Shown: piece by piece, positions 3,409 through 60,027 of the stretch
Layout of the letters: the number at the start of each line of letters is the position of its first letter
Numbering within the stretch: position 1 is the stretch's first letter
From: Peptococcaceae bacterium UBA7702
Lineage (GTDB): Bacteria > Bacillota > Dehalobacteriia > UBA7702
Direction: 5' to 3'
NCBI GenBank assembly: GCA_002482535.1
Contig: DLGE01000007.1
Span: 129,325 to 193,324, forward strand
Length of the DNA stretch: 64,000 nt
Notes under the pieces: generated by a model
The model's input: the letters and a program-made list of their open reading frames with translations, nothing else
What the model was told of the DNA's origin: nothing
The model's database searches: none
Made by a program: the position numbers and the translations under genes

Positions 3409-3661
3409 AAAATGACTCCGTTTCCCCCACTAAAAACTACATCCGTAAAAAAATCGGCATTGACCTTAGACAATTTCACGGAATAAGAATCACTGTTTTC
3501 ATTATAGAAAAAAAAGATTACAAAAGAAATAGACCAAAAGTTCTATTCCAGCACTGTTTTTTGCTTTTTTGATCACGTGATACACACGAACCACATAGAA
3601 AACAGCATTGATTTCCCCTCGGCGATACACTATAATGAAAGGAGTTCCAGCAAAGGAGAAA

Positions 3662-4242: not shown

Positions 4243-5751
4243 ATGAAAAAAACACTTCAATATTTTCTCAGAGGCAAAAATAACGTCAATTATTACAATA
4301 ATGTCGTGAACGGCCTCGTTACAATTATTTTTATATTCATCACAACTGAACTGGTGCTTTGGGTTTCTTTAAGCCAAATCGTCAGCGACCGGGGACACCT
4401 GGCGCTGATGATTTTCGGTTTCTGTAATTTTATGCTCTTTAGCGGCAGTTTCTTCTATTATTGGACTTGCCGTAATTACGGCAAAGACATCGAAAATCTG
4501 CTGCCTTCCATCAATCGCTACCACCGCAGCTTTTTTTCCTTTCAGGATGAGATTCTCGTTGACTACGTATTGGCTCAACTCTTAAAGGGGAAATATCCCC
4601 CGGAAAACTACGAGGAGTATTTCGCCAACAACACCACCTACGACTTTATCAACAGCGAATACCGGGTTGTGGTGATCATCCCGGAAAACGAATACGACAA
4701 CAATGCCGAGGCTTTTAGCGTTTGCGGCCTGGCCTTAAACGACATTGCCAAAGATTCCCTTTCCGTCTATATGCTGGAAATCGATACGATGCTTGTGGGC
4801 ATCTGCTTCCCCAAACATGGGAAATCTTTTGTCGTCAACACCAACTGGCTGGAAATGACACGCTTCTTTCAGTACGTTCAGGTAAAAGTGGAAGAAAATA
4901 CCAACGTCCACTTGAACATCGCCGCCGGCGGCCGCCATAAAGGTCTCGCAGCCCTGGCCAAAGCCTTTAACGAAGCCATGAGCGCCCATAAATATCAGGA
5001 AATCTTCGGCGACGAAAACTGCCTGGTTTTCTATAACAACATCAACTTCCCCGATCAACCCGAAGACAGCGTTTACGAAGATGACGACTGGTACGAAAGC
5101 GAACGGAAAATGCTCTACGCCGTCAATAACGGCGATTACGAAGCCGGGGAAGCCATCATTGACGAAATGTGCGCCATGATGGGGCGCATCAGCAACCAGT
5201 CCTTCCAGCTCATGAAATACAAAGCCTTCGGCCTCATCAATACGCTTACCATCGAATTGATGAAAAAGCGAACCTTAGACAATGAATTGATGAATATCAA
5301 CGGCTGCTTTCACATCTCCCAATGTAAGTCCGTCCACGAACTGACGCGTTCCGTCAGAATCATCTACAAAGCCATTGAGGCGGAACTAAAATCCCAGGAA
5401 AGCGAAGTCTCCACCAATACAAATAAACGCGTGGCTGAAATCATGGCCTATATCCAGGAAAACCATACCAATACCGACTTAAATATTGTCTACGTCGCGG
5501 AACATTTTAATTTGACGCCGGCCTACCTCTCCCGCATTTTCAAAAAAGAAACCGGTGTCGGCCCCGCCGAATACCTACAGATGATTCGCATCGAAGCCGC
5601 AAAAAAATTGCTCCTTTCCAGCGACCTGACGATTCGGGAAATTTCCGAGGCCGTCGGCTATCAATACGTCCTCACCATGAATCGGGTATTCAAAAAAACC
5701 TTGGGCGTCACGCCTTCTCAATACATTGCGGAAAACAAAGAAAAAGCCTAA
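4243..5751 (+). CDS. AraC-family transcriptional regulator with N-terminal membrane/sensor region
   Basis: C-terminal double HTH: ...AEHFNLTPAYLSRIFKKETGVGPAEYLQMIRIEAAKKLLLSSDLTIREISEAVGYQYVLTMNRVFKK... N-terminus has two or three hydrophobic helices. TAA stop followed by the terminator at 5775-5807. Confidence 0.8.
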   Translation: MKKTLQYFLRGKNNVNYYNNVVNGLVTIIFIFITTELVLWVSLSQIVSDRGHLALMIFGFCNFMLFSGSFFYYWTCRNYGKDIENLLPSINRYHRSFFSFQDEILVDYVLAQLLKGKYPPENYEEYFANNTTYDFINSEYRVVVIIPENEYDNNAEAFSVCGLALNDIAKDSLSVYMLEIDTMLVGICFPKHGKSFVVNTNWLEMTRFFQYVQVKVEENTNVHLNIAAGGRHKGLAALAKAFNEAMSAHKYQEIFGDENCLVFYNNINFPDQPEDSVYEDDDWYESERKMLYAVNNGDYEAGEAIIDEMCAMMGRISNQSFQLMKYKAFGLINTLTIELMKKRTLDNELMNINGCFHISQCKSVHELTRSVRIIYKAIEAELKSQESEVSTNTNKRVAEIMAYIQENHTNTDLNIVYVAEHFNLTPAYLSRIFKKETGVGPAEYLQMIRIEAAKKLLLSSDLTIREISEAVGYQYVLTMNRVFKKTLGVTPSQYIAENKEKA

Positions 5752-5774
5752 CACAGTCTACGAAAACAGTTCTT

Positions 5775-5807
5775 CGCTTCGAGGCAACCTGCCTCGAAGC
5801 TTTTTTT
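5775..5807 (+). terminator. rho-independent terminator
   Basis: gcttcgaggcaacctgcctcgaagc followed by ttttttt. Confidence 0.6.
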
Positions 5808-10762: not shown

Positions 10763-11111
10763 GGGGATGTATTGGTTTTCGACGGGGGAAGGATTGGTCG
10801 GGTCAGCGAGCCGGCGTTCCATATGGCCGTAAAACTGTGGAACCTAAAATGAAATGACAAACAACAATTAGCTTTCGCTGCTTAATTGCAGCATAACCTC
10901 GTGCGCTCTGGTCCCGCGATGAGCGCAATGGGGTCATTAGGTCGGGATACCGCGTCGCCTTTTTCCGGCGGTAACACGGGAAATTAACGGAATGGTCTTA
11001 TGTGACTTTGTTTATGTAATCATATAAGGCGAGATCGAACATAAACTGCGCTCGGAGAAAACTCGGTGGGTTCTCTTTCGGACAGGGGTTCAACTCCCCT
11101 CATCTCCACCA
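10763..11111 (+). ncRNA. ssrA: tmRNA (ssrA)
   Basis: 5' GGGGATGTATTGGTTTTCGACGGGGG... closely matches the tmRNA 5' end. 3' GGACAGGGGTTCAACTCCCCTCATCTCCACCA matches the T-arm, acceptor stem and CCA. The acceptor stem GGGGATG/CATCTCC contains the G3·U70 wobble. Internal tag ORF ...AAT GAC AAA CAA CAA TTA GCT TTC GCT GCT TAA encodes (A)NDKQQLAFAA. Terminator follows immediately. Confidence 0.9.
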
Positions 11112-11161: not shown

Positions 11162-11508
11162 TAGTACCCATTTCAGCCGATTTTACGGACAAAATGCGGA
11201 TTTTTACGGACGCTGTAGCAGGGGCTGGACAATCAATGCACACGGTAAAGTGATAAAAAGCTCCAGTCACTGATTGGAACTGTACAAGTGATGGGTAGTG
11301 TTCATAACTATAAAACTTGTCCTTTGATAATGCATATGGTAAAATAACGAAAGACTGAACTTAATCAGCCTCCGGACGAGATGCGCCGTACCCGGTTTGA
11401 CGACGACGCACCGAAAGGAGTGCATCAATATATGAGTATGGTTATTCAAATTATCGGCTCGGTCGCCGTTCTTGCGGGCTTCGCACTTGCACAAGCGGGT
11501 GTCCTGAA

Positions 11509-25122: not shown

Positions 25123-25467
25123 TAATTCACTTGACGAAACCACAGATGTTCCCGGGGGCCATCGGCAGCGGCGCTTTGCCCGTAGCTTATTTCGGCGTCG
25201 CCGAACGCTTTAGTGTTTTTGCCGCCGCCGGCTTTACCGCGGTTTTAGGTTATGAGCTGTTCATCGCCTTTGACCTCATGGAGGAAAAATAACAGACCGG
25301 GGATTTTTGCATAGAATATCAAACAAAGGAAACCGCAAGGAATCATCCTTGCGGTTTCCGGCGTATTGTGTCCGTTTTACATCATATAAAAATTATTTTA
25401 AAATAACCCTTGCCTTTTCTAAAAAACTGTGTTAGGATAAGTAAAATTATTCCTTCAGGAGCATGAC

Positions 25468-25622
25468 ATGATCAACCTCAGCCCCGCAACCGAATATCGC
25501 TTTTTCGGCTTTACCTATTACTTTGGTAAGGCTTATTTCGGTTTGGCTGAAACAGTGTTAACCTGCTCTTGATCTGATTTAAGGCACGTAACCCGCAGCC
25601 AGCCGGCTGCGGGTTTTTTGTA
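25468..25622 (+). promoter_or_regulatory. candidate leader-peptide transcription attenuator (Phe/Tyr-rich 34-codon leader ORF plus intrinsic terminator) upstream of aroF-tyrA-pheA
   Basis: AGGAG RBS then ATG at 25468. The peptide is MINLSPATEYRFFGFTYYFGKAYFGLAETVLTCS (5 Phe and 4 Tyr, clustered). The stop at 25570 is followed by cccgcagccagccggctgcggg plus tttttt (25593-25620), then the aroF RBS. Confidence 0.45.
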
Positions 25623-25640
25623 TTTCGGGAGGTAAAAGAT

Positions 25641-26654
25641 ATGATTGTCATTTTAAAAAAAGATCCCAACAAAGAACAGTTGGAAAGTCTCATTGATTGG
25701 CTGAAAGAAAAAGGGCTGCAAATCCATGTCAGCGTCGGCGTATCCCAGATGATTCTGGGCTTGGTGGGGGACACTTCTACCTTGGATATCGACTTGATCT
25801 CCGCTTTGGATATCGTCGAAGACGTGAAACGCGTTCAGGAACCCTACAAAAAAGCCAACCGCAAATTTCACCCCGGGGATACGGTGGTCAAAGTCGGCAA
25901 TACGCAAATCGGCGGCGGCAATCTCACCGTCATGGCGGGACCCTGTTCCGTGGAAAGCGAAGCGCAAATCGTCGCTGTAGCCCGAGCCGTCAAAGACAGT
26001 GGCGCGACCATGCTTCGAGGCGGCGCTTTCAAACCGCGGACTTCTCCCTATGCCTTTCAGGGCATGGGCGCGGAAGGTTTGGAACTGCTAAAGCTGGCCC
26101 GAGCTGAAACAGGTCTGCCCATTGTGACCGAAATCATGGATACCGCCCAGATCGACCTCTTTGCCGACGTCGATGTCATCCAAGTCGGCGCGCGGAACAT
26201 GCAAAACTTTAATTTGCTGAAGCTCTTGGGCCGCCAAGAAAAGCCCGTGATGATCAAGCGCGGCCTCTCCTCCACCTATGAAGAGTGGCTGATGAGCGCC
26301 GAATACGTCATGGCCGAAGGCAATAAAAACGTCATCCTCTGCGAGCGGGGCATTCGCACCTTTGAAAAATTTACCCGCAATACTTTGGATATTGCCGCGA
26401 TTCCCGTATTGCGCCGCCTGACCCATCTGCCCATCATCATTGATCCCAGCCACGCCACGGGGAAGGCCTTTTTGGTGCCTGACTGCGCCAGGGCGGCGGT
26501 GGCCGCCGGTACCGACGGCCTATTGATCGAGGTCCACAACGATCCGGAACACGCCTTATCCGACGGCCCCCAATCCCTGCGGCCGGAGGCTTTCGACAAG
26601 CTGACAAAGAAATTACTGGCACTGCATGCCTTTATCAAAGAGCAGGAGGCTTAA
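25641..26654 (+). CDS. aroF: 3-deoxy-7-phosphoheptulonate (DAHP) synthase, type I-beta with N-terminal regulatory domain
   Basis: …GGNLTVMAGPCSVESEAQIVAVARAVKDSGATMLRGGAFKPRTSPYAFQGMG… is the KDSR/DAHPS I-beta signature. RBS GGGAGG. Confidence 0.9.
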   Translation: MIVILKKDPNKEQLESLIDWLKEKGLQIHVSVGVSQMILGLVGDTSTLDIDLISALDIVEDVKRVQEPYKKANRKFHPGDTVVKVGNTQIGGGNLTVMAGPCSVESEAQIVAVARAVKDSGATMLRGGAFKPRTSPYAFQGMGAEGLELLKLARAETGLPIVTEIMDTAQIDLFADVDVIQVGARNMQNFNLLKLLGRQEKPVMIKRGLSSTYEEWLMSAEYVMAEGNKNVILCERGIRTFEKFTRNTLDIAAIPVLRRLTHLPIIIDPSHATGKAFLVPDCARAAVAAGTDGLLIEVHNDPEHALSDGPQSLRPEAFDKLTKKLLALHAFIKEQEA

Positions 26655-26655
26655 C

Positions 26656-27492
26656 ATGAACATCGCCATCGTCGGCTTGGGGCTGATCGGCGGCTCCTTT
26701 GCCAAAAGCATCAAAGCGCGCACCGCCCATAGGGTATGGGGAACGGATATTGATCATGAAACCATGACCTTAGCCCGGCTCTGCGGCGCCATCGACGCTC
26801 CCTTAGAGGAAGAGAAGCTAAAAGACTGCGACCTGATCCTCGTCGCCCTCTGCCCCGCGGCTGCCATCACCTGGGTGCAGGAACACAGCGGGCAGATTTC
26901 CGCTAAGACCACCGTCGTCGATCTTTGCGGCATTAAGCGGGAAGTTTGCGCCGCCCTTACGCCCATCGCGGAAACAAAGGGCTTTTCCTTCATTGGCGGG
27001 CACCCTATGGCCGGCAGTGAACGGGGCGGCTTTGTCAATGCCAAAGACAATCTTTTCTGCGGCGCCGCCATGATCTTAACACCCCTGGAGACAACGGACA
27101 TCCATCTTTTGGAGGATTTAAAACGCTTCTTTACCGACGTCGGCTTTGGCAGCCTGACCTTTGCCACCCCGGAGGAACACGACCGTATCATTGCCTTTAC
27201 CTCCCAGCTGGCGCACATCACCTCCAGCGCCTATATCAAATCTCCGGAAGCTCAAAGGAACAGGGGCTTTGCCGCCGGCAGCTACCGGGATATGACCCGG
27301 GTAGCGCTGTTGGATGAAGCCATGTGGACGGAGCTGTTCCTTGCCAACAAGGATTTTCTGACCGAGGAGCTTTCCCTGCTCATCGAGAATTTAAAGGAGT
27401 ACCTCGCCGCCTTAAAAGAGGGAGACGCCCAACAATTACGCGCCCTTTTGAAAGATGGCCGGGAAAAGAAAGCCACTGCCGGCGGCAACTGA
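26656..27492 (+). CDS. tyrA: prephenate dehydrogenase
   Basis: MNIAIVGLGLIGGSFAKSIK… has a Rossmann GxGxxG motif and is colinear with TyrA. Coupled to aroF (its stop TAA shares A with the ATG). Confidence 0.85.
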   Translation: MNIAIVGLGLIGGSFAKSIKARTAHRVWGTDIDHETMTLARLCGAIDAPLEEEKLKDCDLILVALCPAAAITWVQEHSGQISAKTTVVDLCGIKREVCAALTPIAETKGFSFIGGHPMAGSERGGFVNAKDNLFCGAAMILTPLETTDIHLLEDLKRFFTDVGFGSLTFATPEEHDRIIAFTSQLAHITSSAYIKSPEAQRNRGFAAGSYRDMTRVALLDEAMWTELFLANKDFLTEELSLLIENLKEYLAALKEGDAQQLRALLKDGREKKATAGGN

Positions 27493-27533: not shown

Positions 27534-28673
27534 ATGGAAATAACGGAAATTCGCAAGCAAATTGATGAAACCGACAAAGTGATTTTAGAACAATTCCTGA
27601 CGCGGATGAAACTCTGCGAAGAGATCGCCGCCTGTAAAAAAGATCAGGCCCTCCCCGTTTTTAACCGCGAGAGGGAGCGGGAGATTTTGGCCCGGGCCGA
27701 AGAAAATGCCGGGCCAATGGGGCCTTACGCTTATTATCTGTTTTCCGTCCTGATGGAGCTCTCCCGCACCAGACAGGGGGAACTCTGCGCGGCTCCCACC
27801 AAAGTACGGACGCAAATCGAAAAAGCCTTGGAAAAGGAAGAAGATTTTTTTCCCCGCACCGGCACCGTAGCCTGCCAGGGGGTAGAGGGCAGCAACGGTC
27901 AAGCCGCCTGCGATAAACTGCTGCCCCGGGGCAAAATCGTCTATGTCAAAACCTTTGCGGCGGTCTTCTCCGCCGTGGAGTCAGGTTTGTGCAAATACGG
28001 CGTGGTACCCATCGAAAACAGCACCAACGGCTCGGTGCGCAGCGTCTATGAGCTGCTGCAAAAAAGAGGTCTCTTCATCGTGGGGGCCACAAACCTGCAA
28101 ATCCGCCATGAATTGCTGGCGAAGCCGGGAGTAAAAATGGAGGACATCAAAGAAATTTACTCCCACGAACAGGCCTTGGGCCAATGCAGTAAGTATTTGA
28201 ACAGCCTGGATGACAGCGTCAAAATCACCGCCGCCGACAACACTGCCGCCGCCGCAAAAATGGTGGCGGAAACGGACCGCAGGGATTGCGCCGCCATCGC
28301 CTCCCACGATTGCGCGGCCCTTTACGGTCTCACCGTGATCAACGATGATATCCAAGACAGCGACAACAACCATACCCGCTTCATTTGCGTGGCCAAAGAG
28401 CCGACGATCCACGCCGGGGCCAACCGCATCAGCCTGATTCTCTCCAGTGACAACAAACCCGGCGCCCTCTACGGCATCCTCTCCAAATTGGCGGTGCGGG
28501 GCATCAACATGAGTAAACTGGAAAGCTGCCCGGTCACGGGCCGCAACTTTGAATACGTATTCTTTATCGAGCTGGAAGCCTCGGTGAAAGAACCCGGCGT
28601 TTTACCGGTTTTAGACGAACTGTCCCGGGTCTGTGAGGTATTCCATTATCTTGGTTGCTACGCTTCAGTTTGA
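27534..28673 (+). CDS. pheA: bifunctional chorismate mutase / prephenate dehydratase (CM-PDT-ACT)
   Basis: MEITEIRKQIDETDKVILEQFLTRMKLCEEIA (CM_2 domain), …ENSTNGSVR…, and the C-terminal ACT domain. Confidence 0.9.
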   Translation: MEITEIRKQIDETDKVILEQFLTRMKLCEEIAACKKDQALPVFNREREREILARAEENAGPMGPYAYYLFSVLMELSRTRQGELCAAPTKVRTQIEKALEKEEDFFPRTGTVACQGVEGSNGQAACDKLLPRGKIVYVKTFAAVFSAVESGLCKYGVVPIENSTNGSVRSVYELLQKRGLFIVGATNLQIRHELLAKPGVKMEDIKEIYSHEQALGQCSKYLNSLDDSVKITAADNTAAAAKMVAETDRRDCAAIASHDCAALYGLTVINDDIQDSDNNHTRFICVAKEPTIHAGANRISLILSSDNKPGALYGILSKLAVRGINMSKLESCPVTGRNFEYVFFIELEASVKEPGVLPVLDELSRVCEVFHYLGCYASV

Positions 28674-28816: not shown

Positions 28817-30289
28817 TTATTTGGCCCAGGCCTCTCTGGCTTCGGTGATGATGCGGTCCAAGGCTTTGGCGGTACTTTCGTCCAACGCGGCGGGCTTATG
28901 ATTTTTTAGGATATGCTGCATTTCTTCGGTGGCCCGGGCAGCGAGGTCCTGGCCGCCGTCGGCTTTCCACTGTCCGTAGGGACGGCGATCAAAAAGCCGG
29001 GTATAAGACTGTTCCTCCCGCATGTGCTTTAAAGTATGTTCTTCCTGGAGGAAGTGGCCGCCGCAACCCACTTGACGCAGGACATCCACGGCCATGGTTT
29101 CATCGTTTACCGGAATGCCGCCGATGATCTTCCTTACCATCTTGGCAAGTTCGTTATCAATGACAATCTGGCTGAAATCAAGGGTCATGCCCAGGTCGAT
29201 CATGCCCAAACCGTAGATCATGTTGGCGCCTGCCAACGCTGCCATCAGCATGGACATGGTTTTTTCGAGACCGGCCTGTTCATCAAGGCATTTGCTGTCC
29301 GTCTATGAACCCGCGACATAACTGGGAATTTTATAAAACTGCGCCAGGCGGGCCACGGCAGCGCTAAGCATCGCCAATTCAGGACAGCCAATGGTGGCGG
29401 TGGCGGAGCTTAGATCCATGATCGTGGTGGAACTGCCGTAAAGATTCGGTGCGCCTTTTTTCACCGCCTGACCCAAAACGATTCCGGCCAGCACTTCGGC
29501 ATTGTGGGTCACAAGGGTTCCCGCCAATGTTACGGGACTGGTGCCGCCAGCCATGGCCATAGATAACACGGTACAGGGCGCGTTGTTTTCGGCATAGACA
29601 ATGATCGGTTCCGTGGTTTCCGGAGAAATTGTCAGGGGACTGGTGGGACAGACCACCGTGGAGGCTACGGGACGGCGGGCAAAAGCCTCTTTGCCACCGG
29701 CCACGGCGAAAGCCATTTCCATGAATTTTTCCGCCTCCCGGCGGCTGTGGGCGCTTTGGGTACAGTGCTTGGTGGAATGGCTTGCCATCGCCTGATAGCT
29801 GGCCAGATTACCGATTTCAGGGGGAAGATCGCGGCATTCCACCGCCACATCCAAAAGATCGTATTGTGCCAAAGCGTCGACGAGAATCGCCACCCGCACC
29901 TGATCCTCATAACAGGAGGGACGGTATGCCCCGGTATCAGGATCGACGACATTGACGCCTTTGCTGAAATTGCAGAAGTTAACCCTGGTTCCTTCGAGGT
30001 GAAGGTCATTTTTGGGATCGCGCCCCGCCAGCAATACCGAAGCGGGAGTGGAGATGATGGCGTCTTCCACGACGTGGGCCGGGATATAGATCATGTGATT
30101 GGCGGCATCAACGGTACAGCCAACACCCTCATAGTAAGCCTGGGCTTCCCTACAAACGGTTTTGATTCCCGTGTGCCAGAGGACTTCCAAAGTAGCTGCG
30201 TGAATCTGTTCCAGGGAAGCCGGAGAGAGGCCAAAAAGACCGAAACCGCGGATATCCTCCACACCGCTGCTGATCAAACGTCTGCTCAT
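28817..30289 (-). CDS. mttB: trimethylamine:corrinoid methyltransferase MttB, with an in-frame amber (TAG) codon at 29303-29305 (codon 329 of 490), predicted pyrrolysine
   Basis: The listed ORFs 29303-30289 and 28817-29257 are in the same frame and separated only by TAG. The flanking sequence …KIPSYVAGS[TAG]TDSKCLDEQAGLEKTMSMLMAALAGAN… is colinear with …FGLAGATDSKTLDAQAAMEV… in the paralog at 33188, and with the paralog at 30294. TAG to the C-terminus is 161 residues, the same as Pyl334-to-end in 495-aa Methanosarcina MttB. Translationally coupled (AAAGGAG RBS, ATG 4 nt after the TGA) to the upstream paralog. TAA stop. Confidence 0.65.
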
Positions 30290-30293
30290 CTTG

Positions 30294-31781
30294 TCAACTC
30301 CTTTCAGGGCCTAAGGGCAGTGAAACAATATCCATGGCCGCCATAATTTCAGTCATTGCGCCATCGAGTTTCACCGCGGTATCTTGCGTGAGGGCGGGAA
30401 TCTCATGATGCTCCAAAATAGCGGTGACTTGCGCTTTGGCTCTGGCGAAAATATCACTGCCGCCCTGTGCTTCCCAGGCGTTTCTATTCTTTTTATCGAT
30501 GACCAACGGGGGAATATAGAGCTCCTCTTTAAAGTGACGCAGCGTGTGCTCGGCGGACATATAATCGCCGCCGGGGCCCAAGGCGTCGATGAGGTCAAGA
30601 CATAACGTTTCGTCGTTGACGGCAAAGCCCTTTTGCAGCCGTTTGGTCATCGCCACGATTTCATGGTCAATGACCAGTTTTTCCAAACTGAAGGTGTTGA
30701 CAAAATCGAGCATACCGGGACCGGCGATGACATGCAAACCGCCGGCAGCGGCCAACAGGGCGCTGAAGGCCGTCTCCAGCCCGGCCTGGGCATCGACGGT
30801 TTTGGCGTCGGCCAGACCGGCGTAAGTATGACAGGGCATCCCGTAATAACGGGCCATTTGAGCGTAGGCCGTGCTGATCAAGTTCGTTTCCACGGCATTC
30901 AGCGAAGTGGTGCTAAAACGCATATCAAAGGTCATCGGCGCGCCGCCGAAGATCATCGGATTGCCGGGATTGACACTCTGGGCCAGGACGATACCGCTTA
31001 ACGTTTCCGCCACATGAATCAAGAGGGAACCGGCAAGGGTCGCCGGTGATACGGCGCCGGGCATGGGAACGGAGATCGTTTCCATGGGCAACCCCAGCTT
31101 TGCACAGTCGATGATGTTATGACAGCTGATATGGGTCCATTTCAGAGAGGGAGAAGAACAGATGTCAAAGAAGGCCAGAGGCTTTTCACGTAAAGCCGCT
31201 TCGCTGCCGCGAATCTGCGTCAATAACTTGGCAATATTGGCGACGCCTTCGACGTCAAAGGCTCCTACGGCCATGGGTTTTACCGTATTTTTCAATAACA
31301 GATAGACCCGGTAACAATCGGCAATCTTTTTGGGTACGTCAGCCAAAGAAACGGCGGTGCTTTGAATGGGGAAGTTTTCCAGCCCGTCACAGAGACGGTA
31401 AATCTTAACGATATCGCCGCTCACCGCCGGTCTCGCGGTGCAGTTGTCGCTTTCCAAAAAATTGAGGCCGGCGGAACCGGGATCAAAGTAGCAGTTCTCG
31501 CCTCCAATGGTGATGGGATTTTCCCCTTCGCGGCCAAAAAGCTCAAAGGTTTCCGGTACGGAAGACAGGGATTTTTCCACCAGTTCTTTGGGGAAACGGG
31601 CGATTTTTTGGTCAAAATCGACGCTACACCCCGCATCGCGGAGAATGGTCAAAGCCTCCTCACTATCGAAAAACACGCCGGTTTTTGCCAATACTTTTAA
31701 CGCCGCCTCGTGGATTTTCAGAATATCTTCTTCCTTCAGAAACCGCAAAAGGGGCTGATGCTCCAATGTAAATTTTGACAT
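30294..31781 (-). CDS. MttB-superfamily methyltransferase, non-Pyl paralog (495 aa)
   Basis: MSKFTLEHQPLLRFLKEEDILKIHEAALKVLAKTGVFFDSEEALTILRDAGCSVDF… has Leu at the Pyl-equivalent position (…YAGLADAKTVDAQAG…). TGA stop. Confidence 0.85.
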   Translation of the reverse strand: MSKFTLEHQPLLRFLKEEDILKIHEAALKVLAKTGVFFDSEEALTILRDAGCSVDFDQKIARFPKELVEKSLSSVPETFELFGREGENPITIGGENCYFDPGSAGLNFLESDNCTARPAVSGDIVKIYRLCDGLENFPIQSTAVSLADVPKKIADCYRVYLLLKNTVKPMAVGAFDVEGVANIAKLLTQIRGSEAALREKPLAFFDICSSPSLKWTHISCHNIIDCAKLGLPMETISVPMPGAVSPATLAGSLLIHVAETLSGIVLAQSVNPGNPMIFGGAPMTFDMRFSTTSLNAVETNLISTAYAQMARYYGMPCHTYAGLADAKTVDAQAGLETAFSALLAAAGGLHVIAGPGMLDFVNTFSLEKLVIDHEIVAMTKRLQKGFAVNDETLCLDLIDALGPGGDYMSAEHTLRHFKEELYIPPLVIDKKNRNAWEAQGGSDIFARAKAQVTAILEHHEIPALTQDTAVKLDGAMTEIMAAMDIVSLPLGPERS

Positions 31782-59734: not shown

Positions 59735-59960
59735 AAATAAAAAAAGTTCCAGCAGATCGGTGATACCGATCAACTGAAACTTTACCGTTGTTCCACGTGA
59801 ACTCTTTTTATGGCAGGTCTTCTGACTCACAGTTTTACCCGATGGCCGCGCCTTCCCGGCTGCCCGGTGGCAAAATGCGGTTCTCAACAACTGTATACAG
59901 CGGTGGGTCCGTTCAGGTTTCGCACCTGATTCCCTATTCTCCCCCTTGGGGCACCATAAA
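59735..59960 (-). promoter_or_regulatory. cobalamin (B12) riboswitch with terminator-type expression platform, 5' of the ECF–UbiD–HyuAB operon
   Basis: Minus-strand sequence reads GGTGCC…AGGGAA-TCAGGTGCGAAACCTGAACGG-ACCCACCGCTGTA (B12-box-like) …GCCACCGGGCAGCCGGGAAGGCGCGGCC… GAGTCAGAAGACCTGCC. All hallmark blocks are in canonical order. It is followed by the GATCGGTATCACCGATC hairpin, a U-run (TTTTTTATTTT) and the EcfA start. Confidence 0.7.
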
Positions 59961-60027
59961 AATCATATATAACTGCGGTCATTATACAAAATAACAACAA
60001 TCCTGTCAAGGGAAAATCTTTGGCTTT

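Follow-up and report, generated by a model that had tools for sequence, protein, structure and literature searches.

Leader-peptide control of aroF, the gene for 3-deoxy-D-arabino-heptulosonate 7-phosphate (DAHP) synthase (DAHPS), has been described in Corynebacterium glutamicum, where the leader aroR, with a Phe-Tyr-Phe sequence, was found experimentally to control aroF (Neshat et al. 2014, J Biotechnol 190:55, as related in passages of PMC11802643 and PMC11525245). In the account given in the review PMC11802643, ribosome stalling raises transcription of the aroR-aroF unit, and limitation for Phe is effective while limitation for Tyr is not. Here we describe a comparable element in a 64,000-nt stretch of DNA (the window) from Peptococcaceae bacterium UBA7702 (GenBank assembly GCA_002482535.1, contig DLGE01000007.1, positions 129,325 to 193,324), in which a 34-codon leader open reading frame (ORF) rich in Phe and Tyr codons, followed by an intrinsic terminator, precedes an aroF-tyrA-pheA operon. 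Sequence analysis gives us considerable confidence that this element attenuates transcription by a ribosome-mediated, or leader-peptide, mechanism and responds to charged tRNA-Phe and tRNA-Tyr. As in aroR-aroF, the operon starts with the DAHPS gene and is preceded by a short leader in which Phe and Tyr are encoded, so that the enzyme step and the regulatory logic are the same. The resemblance is functional and was drawn from published descriptions. C. glutamicum belongs to the Actinobacteria and, by the review, has a minimal Phe-Tyr-Phe regulatory sequence where the window leader has seven to nine aromatic codons. Unlike in aroR, the presence of tyrA and pheA in the operon and the Tyr-rich leaders suggest that both Phe and Tyr are sensed.

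A second related element is the uORFC-13-1 motif, a prediction for aroF that was reported solely from Acholeplasma and from environmental sequences without assignment (24 representatives); in it an upstream ORF, described as having a U-run that codes for at least one Phe, directly precedes an intrinsic terminator, and it was read as ribosome-mediated attenuation (Brewer et al. 2021, PMC8632094). Its published consensus comprises a promoter, an RBS, a start codon, the U-run, an extra stem and the terminator. By its published description, the layout of this motif, a Phe-codon upstream ORF and a terminator before aroF in a Firmicutes-related lineage, agrees with that of the window. The window element differs in being rich in both Phe and Tyr codons, in having a defined switch between the pairings 1:2, 2:3 and 3:4, and in occurring in Oscillospiraceae and many Clostridia and Negativicutes. 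Naville and Gautheret (PMC2965389) described leader peptides as unusual outside Proteobacteria and Actinobacteria and reported His leader peptides before hisZ and hisS in bacilli, and a passage of PMC5794164 describes a Leu-rich attenuator peptide of the ilv-leu operon of Staphylococcus aureus. The preliminary description of the window, which held that Firmicutes normally control their aromatic pathways by other means, therefore overstated the rarity of such a mechanism in the phylum, given these reported attenuators and the aroF upstream ORF already predicted. The His and Leu leaders, together with the Leu/phe leader, exemplify ribosome-mediated attenuation existing beside T-boxes in Firmicutes; they serve other amino acids and operons, and the window leader matches no Rfam family.

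The Leu/phe leader of Lactococcus is Rfam family RF01743, and the E. coli pheL leader has 15 codons, compared with 34 in the window. With pheL-pheA and trpL-trpEDCBA of E. coli the window element shares the four-region design, codons for the end product, a kinetic choice between structures and termination as the default, and pheA is among the regulated genes here too. It differs from these two systems in having no Rfam family membership, in having the DAHPS gene as the first regulated gene, and in the placement of its aromatic codons, most of which are found not inside region 1 but in the interval from region 1 to region 2, about an additional inner hairpin. A further difference is the stop codon, which is located well past region 2. 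T-boxes (RF00230) resemble the element in responding to tRNA charging, in acting by antitermination and in their place in the genome, but read uncharged tRNA by RNA-RNA contacts without translation, and the window leader contains none. A full-text literature search, with subscription-only comparative-genomics papers lying outside it, found no description of the element in Clostridia, Oscillospiraceae or Negativicutes.

Anatomy and alternative folds of the aroF leader

The operon and the parts of its leader are as follows, all on the plus strand.

25410-25438, plus strand: likely promoter, with a -35 element TTGCCT (25410-25415), a 17-nt spacer and an extended -10 element made up of TG (25430-25431) and TAGGAT (25433-25438)
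25457-25461, plus strand: Shine-Dalgarno sequence (SD) AGGAG of the leader ORF, 6 nt 5' of the ATG, with an AGGA- or GGAG-like sequence at the aligned place in relatives
25468-25572, plus strand: leader ORF, 34 codons and TGA, translated exactly as MINLSPATEYRFFGFTYYFGKAYFGLAETVLTCS
25590-25615, plus strand: intrinsic terminator (the putative attenuator) with a U-rich tail to 25625, from the terminator scan
25627-25632, plus strand: SD GGGAGG of the DAHPS gene, whose ATG is at 25641
25641-26654, plus strand: DAHP synthase, aroF (Pfam DAHP_snth_FXD and DAHP_synth_1)
26626-27492, plus strand: prephenate dehydrogenase, tyrA (Pfam PDH_N and PDH_C)
27534-28673, plus strand: chorismate mutase/prephenate dehydratase, pheA (Pfam CM_2, PDT and ACT)

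Nine of the 34 leader codons are aromatic, five for Phe and four for Tyr (Y10, F12, F13, F15, Y17, Y18, F19, Y23 and F24). The preliminary description had proposed a 34-codon ORF with nine aromatic residues and a good ribosome-binding site (RBS), which the exact translation and the SD bear out; its start is corrected here from 25463, where an ATG opens a frame of only two codons, to 25468. The strong terminator and the DAHPS RBS that it had placed after the ORF are likewise present, with 17 nt, instead of the 20 it had given, separating the leader stop codon (which ends at 25572) from the terminator stem. The Pfam domains agree with its assignment of the downstream genes as aroF-tyrA-pheA. An exact cluster look-up shows that gene calls in public collections already include the leader peptide, either under the name hypothetical protein or with no name. 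The terminator stem pairs 25590-25600 with 25605-25615 (11 bp, of which eight are G-C) around the 4-nt loop AGCC, is followed by TTTTGTATTT, and has a predicted energy of -22.3 kcal/mol (RNAfold).

Within the likely promoter, T25430, G25431, T25433 and A25434 are invariant in an alignment of eight genomes (A1), and TGnTAnnnT occurs at the same place in every relative. The hexamers alone match at 8 of 12 positions, hence their absence from the consensus scan, which instead lists another, non-conserved promoter site at 25376-25404. The conserved extended -10 element suggests that transcription starts near 25445. Upstream of this promoter, a 14-bp hairpin (GGAAACCGCAAGGA…TCCTTGCGGTTTCC, 25328-25359) lies between a 53-aa ORF (25131-25292) and the leader; it was scored by the scan as a minus-strand terminator with the T-run TTTGTTTGAT, and probably insulates the aroF operon from its neighbours.

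The leader RNA as a whole (25440-25640) is strongly structured, with a folding energy of -68.9 kcal/mol compared with -50.1 kcal/mol in shuffles (z = -4.1), a value equalled by none of 200 shuffles. Minimum-free-energy folds and folding with the ribosome at successive positions delimit the following parts.

25478-25494, plus strand: region 1, which supplies the 5' strand of the anti-antiterminator (1:2) and consists of TCAGCC (25478-25483) and AACCGAA (25488-25494)
25537-25550, plus strand: region 2, the switch strand, in which UUCGGUU (25537-25543) and GGCUGA (25545-25550) pair with region 1
25596-25605, plus strand: region 3, the antiterminator partner CAGCCAGCCG, comprising the last 5 nt of the terminator 5' arm, the loop and the first nucleotide of the 3' arm
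25507-25533, plus strand: inner hairpin GGCUUUACC / GGUAAGGCU, 9 bp (25507-25515 with 25525-25533), inside the 1:2 helix
25455-25573, plus strand: outer helix, in which the leader SD and AUG (25455-25469) fold onto the end of the leader ORF (25553-25573)
25495-25524, plus strand: proposed regulatory codons Y10, F12, F13, F15, Y17, Y18 and F19, from folding at successive ribosome positions

The antiterminator part of region 2 is 25539-25549 (CGGUUUGGCUG), which pairs with region 3 over 10 bp with a 1-nt bulge (-16.7 kcal/mol); the 1:2 duplex has an energy of -17.6 kcal/mol. As regions 1 and 3 both pair with region 2, they are alternative partners in the manner of classical attenuators. The preliminary description had likened the leader to attenuators of the pheA/pheL type and had looked to folding for mutually exclusive helices; both expectations hold, as an upstream ORF with end-product codons precedes a terminator (3:4), and the RNA can form an antiterminator (2:3, 25539-25549 with 25596-25605) that excludes the terminator as well as a 1:2 helix (25478-25494 with 25537-25550) that excludes the antiterminator and would be disrupted by a ribosome on the aromatic codons. 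In the predicted off state, the 1:2 helix closes around the inner hairpin and coexists with the terminator and the outer helix. The inner hairpin, which carries F15 to F19 and encloses the Y17-Y18-F19 codons, may serve as a pause or nucleation hairpin. Y23 and F24 (25534-25539) are part of region 2, and their role is probably in pairing and not in sensing. The outer helix (-18.6 kcal/mol in the window, z = -2.6 against shuffles) may shut off re-initiation on completed leader transcripts. Elsewhere it occurs in a subset of loci only, with z below -2 in 13 of 69 and a mean z of -0.6; in two loci, L002 and L085, it is even longer than in the window.

We then modelled a transcript cut just 5' of the terminator 3' arm, in which only the RNA downstream of the ribosome was allowed to fold. 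In this model, the probability of the 2:3 pairing is 0.001 without a ribosome, rises to 0.95-0.98 with the A site anywhere from codon 4 to codon 20, a range that takes in all seven proposed regulatory codons, and is close to zero from codon 23, where the ribosome masks region 2, to the stop. An alternative treatment, in which the ribosome is masked and pairs may span it, was set aside as sterically unrealistic, since it formed the 1:2 helix around a ribosome at codons 15-19.

Aromatic leaders at related DAHPS loci

The comparison covered 80 genome and 80 metagenome loci whose DAHPS is 57-82% identical to that of the window, of which 77 genome loci, and 153 loci in all, were analysable; Oscillibacter and other Oscillospiraceae supply the DAHPS sequences at 76-82% identity, and none of the 160 loci comes from Acholeplasma. 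The window itself also has a match in a metagenome contig (ENA ERZ17807429, NODE_52). An aromatic-rich upstream ORF was defined as one of 10-60 codons with at least six F/Y/W in some 12-residue stretch, no more than 350 nt upstream of the DAHPS gene. Such an ORF precedes the gene at 42 of the 77 genome loci; the reverse complements of these loci yield one, and shuffles that preserve dinucleotides yield 3.5 on average. When eight in 12 are required, the counts become 16, zero and zero. Over all 153 loci the ORF is found at 81, and in 79 of these a hairpin and U-run lie between it and the DAHPS gene, mostly 15-56 nt past the stop codon.

The peptides themselves are very diverse, as the following leaders illustrate; the taxon labels of contigs from metagenome-assembled genomes (MAGs) are those of the records and may be unreliable.

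L020: MSSAAQFYFYYYYFFTQKK
L034 (Acetobacterium): MEELRRNLNEYYYVNTQSYWFFSFGYFAYNKLSSFENP
L070 (Veillonella): MTNQISLTAKQYFYWFFIQRTGKELFVMR
L066 (MAG labelled Kiritimatiellae): MNNNRYFYFSFFYFAFTKRGVS

What is kept is aromatic composition and position, not sequence, which is the signature of a leader peptide and answers in the affirmative, in this sense, the question of conservation that the preliminary description had raised. Trp codons occur in 15 of 37 leaders, and their presence in many leaders fits a DAHPS that feeds all three aromatic pathways. Among loci L001-L080, Tyr makes up 0.46 of the aromatic codons in leaders before aroF-tyrA compared with 0.33 in the rest (Mann-Whitney p = 0.003, kinship ignored).

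The complementarity that the switch calls for also extends beyond the window. At 70 non-identical loci, we took the best duplex that the terminator 5' arm and loop can form with the 3' part of the upstream ORF; its mean z against shuffles is -1.9, with values below -2 in 33 of the 70, and the pairing strand mostly falls within the final codons of that ORF or just past its stop. After double centring, the cognate pairing is favoured over permuted ones by 4.3 kcal/mol, a difference that none of 10,000 permutations reached; the complementarity of leader to terminator is thus specific to each locus. When sequestration of the terminator 5' arm was modelled in the same 70 loci, its mean probability was 0.71 for a ribosome placed on the aromatic codons, 0.28 for one that had reached the stop codon and 0.52 for a leader free of ribosomes.

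The stalled position exceeded the stop position in 63 of the 70 loci (Wilcoxon p ~1e-12).

These data bear on two other accounts of the leader. The first is chance, by which a U-rich intergenic region would happen to hold an F/Y-rich ORF beside an ordinary terminator. The window does contain nine other short ORFs with at least six aromatic residues in 12, nearly all of which overlap larger ORFs, lying within them or antisense to them, and its own 2:3 duplex is not significant when taken alone. None of the nine, however, combines an SD, an ATG and a following terminator, so that the leader is the only such ORF in the 64 kb that is intergenic and has all three, and the counts at related loci (42 compared with one and 3.5 of 77, 79 of 81 with a terminator, none of 10,000 permutations) come from loci that are not near-identical copies, their DAHPS being 57-82% identical and their leaders diverse. 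As the comparative counts are decisive, we take the leader to be more than chance, which we regard as an extremely improbable explanation.

By the second, the product of the ORF would be a small protein, hydrophobic or aromatic, that has a function of its own, the hairpin being the terminator of its gene or a leaky insulator before an independent aroF. Gene callers do annotate a hypothetical protein here and the terminator is strong. However, no promoter-like site was found in the mere 25 nt from the terminator to aroF, which the SD occupies. Across lineages nothing but F/Y/W content is conserved in the peptide, the ORF always occurs together with DAHPS and a terminator, and the locus-specific complementarity of its 3' part to the terminator arm would be needless for a free-standing gene. 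We likewise consider this account extremely unlikely.

Further observations concern the composition of these loci. In the closest relatives of the window (L001-L004) pheA does not follow tyrA, so that the order aroF-tyrA-pheA is not universal. DAHPS genes 60-73% identical to that of the window occur on contigs labelled as non-Bacillota, namely L011 (Paludibacteraceae), L007 (Synergistaceae), L047 (Barnesiella) and L061 (Bacteroides sp. CAG:927), and L011 also has an Oscillibacter-type leader, scoring 88 bits with the covariance model R1 described below. The labels of these four loci suggest mis-binned contigs or horizontal transfer.

Oscillibacter-type leaders and the alternation with T-boxes

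The closest leaders form a clade of 18 loci sharing the motif AEYRYFSFTYYFGKAxFGLAEN. These were aligned with MAFFT, blind to structure (A2), and the same 18 sequences were re-aligned with a covariance model (R1) built from the clade. The off-state structure is 90-91% paired in the clade, compared with 31-50% when slid out of register, and 14-15 of its pairs have changed on both sides; on four of five measures none of 500 shuffles reaches the observed value, and on the fifth at most one does. Most of the covariation is supplied by the terminator (92-96% of cells paired, 9-10 of 11 pairs changed on both sides). The inner hairpin is 91-95% paired across the 18 relatives, with three pairs changed on both sides, and the 1:2 helix is 84-85% paired. 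In the window, region 1 has CAACC where the relatives have CAGCC, and a new CAGCC 8 nt upstream is used by the window fold.

For the 2:3 antiterminator, pairing amounts to 82-83% in register but to 19-48% after sliding. The relatives keep AAACC as their terminator loop, so that CAGCCAAACCG can pair with region 2 over 11 nt without a mismatch; since nothing else would call for conservation of such a loop, this finding strengthens the antiterminator. Two loci have compensatory 2:3 changes, read by eye from the aligned sequences: GUUUCGCUGC with GCAGUGAAAC in L089, and UUGCUGU with ACAGCAA in L092. In L006 (2582-2730) and L083 (1044-1183), a 1-nt change in length shifts the reading frame so that FSVW is encoded where the others have YFGLA, and CGGTTTGG is kept all the same, which argues for selection on the RNA and not on the peptide. 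With the exception of this change in two loci, nearly all gaps in the clade ORFs are multiples of three.

The well-conserved clade motif might point instead to an arrest peptide of the TnaC type, with stalling by the nascent chain triggered by free Phe or Tyr, or another small molecule, and not by a shortage of charged tRNA. Outside the clade, however, aromatic composition is kept without any motif, and inside it conservation reaches synonymous positions and survives the frameshift of L006 and L083, which points to a constraint on RNA pairing; induction of biosynthesis by its own free end product would also have the wrong regulatory sign. An arrest peptide is accordingly very improbable in our estimate.

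The constraint on the RNA raises another alternative, in which a ligand or protein, as in a riboswitch, a T-box-like RNA or a TRAP- or PyrR-like system, switches a structured leader and the ORF is incidental. The strong structure of the leader (z = -4.1), the retention of region 2 at the RNA level in two reading frames, and the T-boxes found at the same position before DAHPS genes of the same family would all suit such a leader. Rfam, however, gave no family covering the leader when the whole window was searched at gathering scores. At E-values up to 10, the best matches to the leader were trpB (26.8 bits, gathering 59) and rnk_pseudo (23.8 bits, gathering 55), lying mostly on the terminator; Trp_leader (RF00513) scored 14.5 bits (gathering 41), and there was no match to T-box (RF00230), Phe_leader (RF01859) or Leu/phe_leader (RF01743). 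Inspection of the sequence by eye, a dedicated search not having been made, brought out no repeats of a motif for protein binding of the (G/U)AG-triplet kind. An incidental ORF would further leave unexplained both the ATG-initiated aromatic-rich frame at 81 loci with unrelated leaders and the fact that nearly all indels in the clade ORFs are multiples of three. We think a ligand- or protein-dependent leader unlikely to a high degree, and favour sensing by the translating ribosome.

As a positive control, the T-box model did find T-boxes directly upstream of the orthologous DAHPS gene in L069 (3213-3442) and L051 (3217-3464), where the gene starts at 3501 in both. These two loci are labelled Erysipelotrichaceae and lack an aromatic upstream ORF; the T-box and the leader peptide, two sensors of tRNA charge, alternate at the same DAHPS gene. 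Further T-boxes lie in L051 (4610-4858) and in L019 (5759-6003).

A search of the 160 loci with R1 found no strong leader members beyond the 18 used to build it, the others scoring 20-39 bits. Within the window, a weak match to R1 (27.7 bits; 5716-5806, plus strand) was rejected as a second attenuator, being an ordinary intrinsic terminator, CTTCGAGGCAACCTGCCTCGAAGCTTTTTTT, after the ORF at 4243-5751.

Proposed mechanism and its implications

We propose that transcription starts near 25445 and that a ribosome loads on the leader ORF with RNA polymerase ahead of it. When Phe and Tyr are plentiful, the ribosome would pass the aromatic codons and region 2, and the 1:2 helix would re-pair behind it around the inner hairpin; with region 2 held by region 1, region 3 would be free to form the terminator with region 4, and transcription would stop at the U-run before aroF. 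When Phe-tRNA or Tyr-tRNA is scarce, the ribosome would stall at codons 10-19 (25495-25524), covering region 1 or standing between regions 1 and 2, so that region 2 (25539-25549) could pair with region 3 (25596-25605) once this is made, no terminator would form, and aroF-tyrA-pheA would be transcribed. If the leader is not translated at all, the 1:2 helix and the terminator would both form, giving termination as the default, and the outer helix would also close the leader RBS. Such a mechanism belongs to a known class and is not a new one.

Several results weigh against this interpretation. The 2:3 duplex of the window itself does not surpass those formed when its GC-rich segment is shuffled (z = -0.3), for which reason the support for the antiterminator was taken from the relatives. 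Covariation of the 2:3 pairing is weak there as well, observed values being reached by 25-58 of 500 shuffles in the covariance-model alignment and by 32-94 of 500 in the MAFFT alignment; within the clade, 2:3 and 1:2 are supported mainly by conservation and not by covariation. When the full-length leader was folded at equilibrium with the ribosome masked, the terminator always formed (P ~0.97) whatever the position of the ribosome, and the choice between on and off must therefore be kinetic, as in E. coli trp. The leader stop codon follows region 2 at a distance of 21 nt. A ribosome that has reached this codon does not itself mask region 2, so that the off state after full translation would rely on the 1:2 helix re-forming behind the ribosome. 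About half of the related loci have no clear aromatic upstream ORF, and the statistics across loci ignore shared ancestry. Lastly, we infer the start of transcription, the kinetics and the response to amino-acid supply from sequence, the response purely so. Set beside these points, every feature of an attenuator that sequence analysis can test is present, and it is from these features that a response to Phe and Tyr is predicted.

Outside the aroF operon, the window contains an MttB-family (trimethylamine methyltransferase) gene of 490 codons (28817-30289, minus strand) with one in-frame TAG at 29303-29305 (AGS*TDSK), directly followed by a match to Rfam PYLIS_3 (29206-29305, minus strand, 71.5 bits, gathering 38). 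From its sequence, this looks like a gene encoding pyrrolysine in an Oscillospiraceae-like metagenome genome. A second ORF of 495 aa (30294-31781) lies just upstream on the same strand. The Rfam search at gathering scores also located a transfer-messenger RNA (tmRNA; 10763-11111, plus strand, 165.8 bits) and, some 240 nt past it, a guanidine-III riboswitch (11350-11412, plus strand, 44.7 bits), together with a cobalamin riboswitch (59795-59973, minus strand, 110.3 bits).

As for the wider family, we lean towards the view that the window element is one of a large uncatalogued class of aromatic leader-peptide attenuators (Phe/Tyr, often Trp) of the DAHPS operon. This class would span Oscillospiraceae, other Clostridia, Eubacteriaceae (Acetobacterium, Alkalibacter) and Negativicutes (Veillonella, Pelosinus), possibly with some non-Bacillota MAGs, and would alternate with T-boxes at the same gene, its codon mix being tuned to the content of the operon. 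The main interest lies in this breadth, the same solution with diverse leaders at about half of the 153 sampled loci and no curated RNA family. The small leader ORFs are at present annotated as hypothetical proteins or missed, and the 18-sequence alignment and its model (A3/A5, R1) could seed such a family.

In the usual view, T-boxes are used in Firmicutes where Proteobacteria use leader peptides; here a leader peptide stands at more than half of the 153 DAHPS loci and a T-box in a neighbouring lineage, a clear case of two sensors of tRNA charge swapping at one gene. DAHPS is the entry to aromatic amino-acid synthesis, and its regulation in gut and environmental Clostridia bears on models of microbiome metabolites and on strain engineering. 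If the proposed class is real, ribosome-mediated attenuation would be a common control of entry into the shikimate pathway in Bacillota, well beyond the proteobacteria and actinobacteria.

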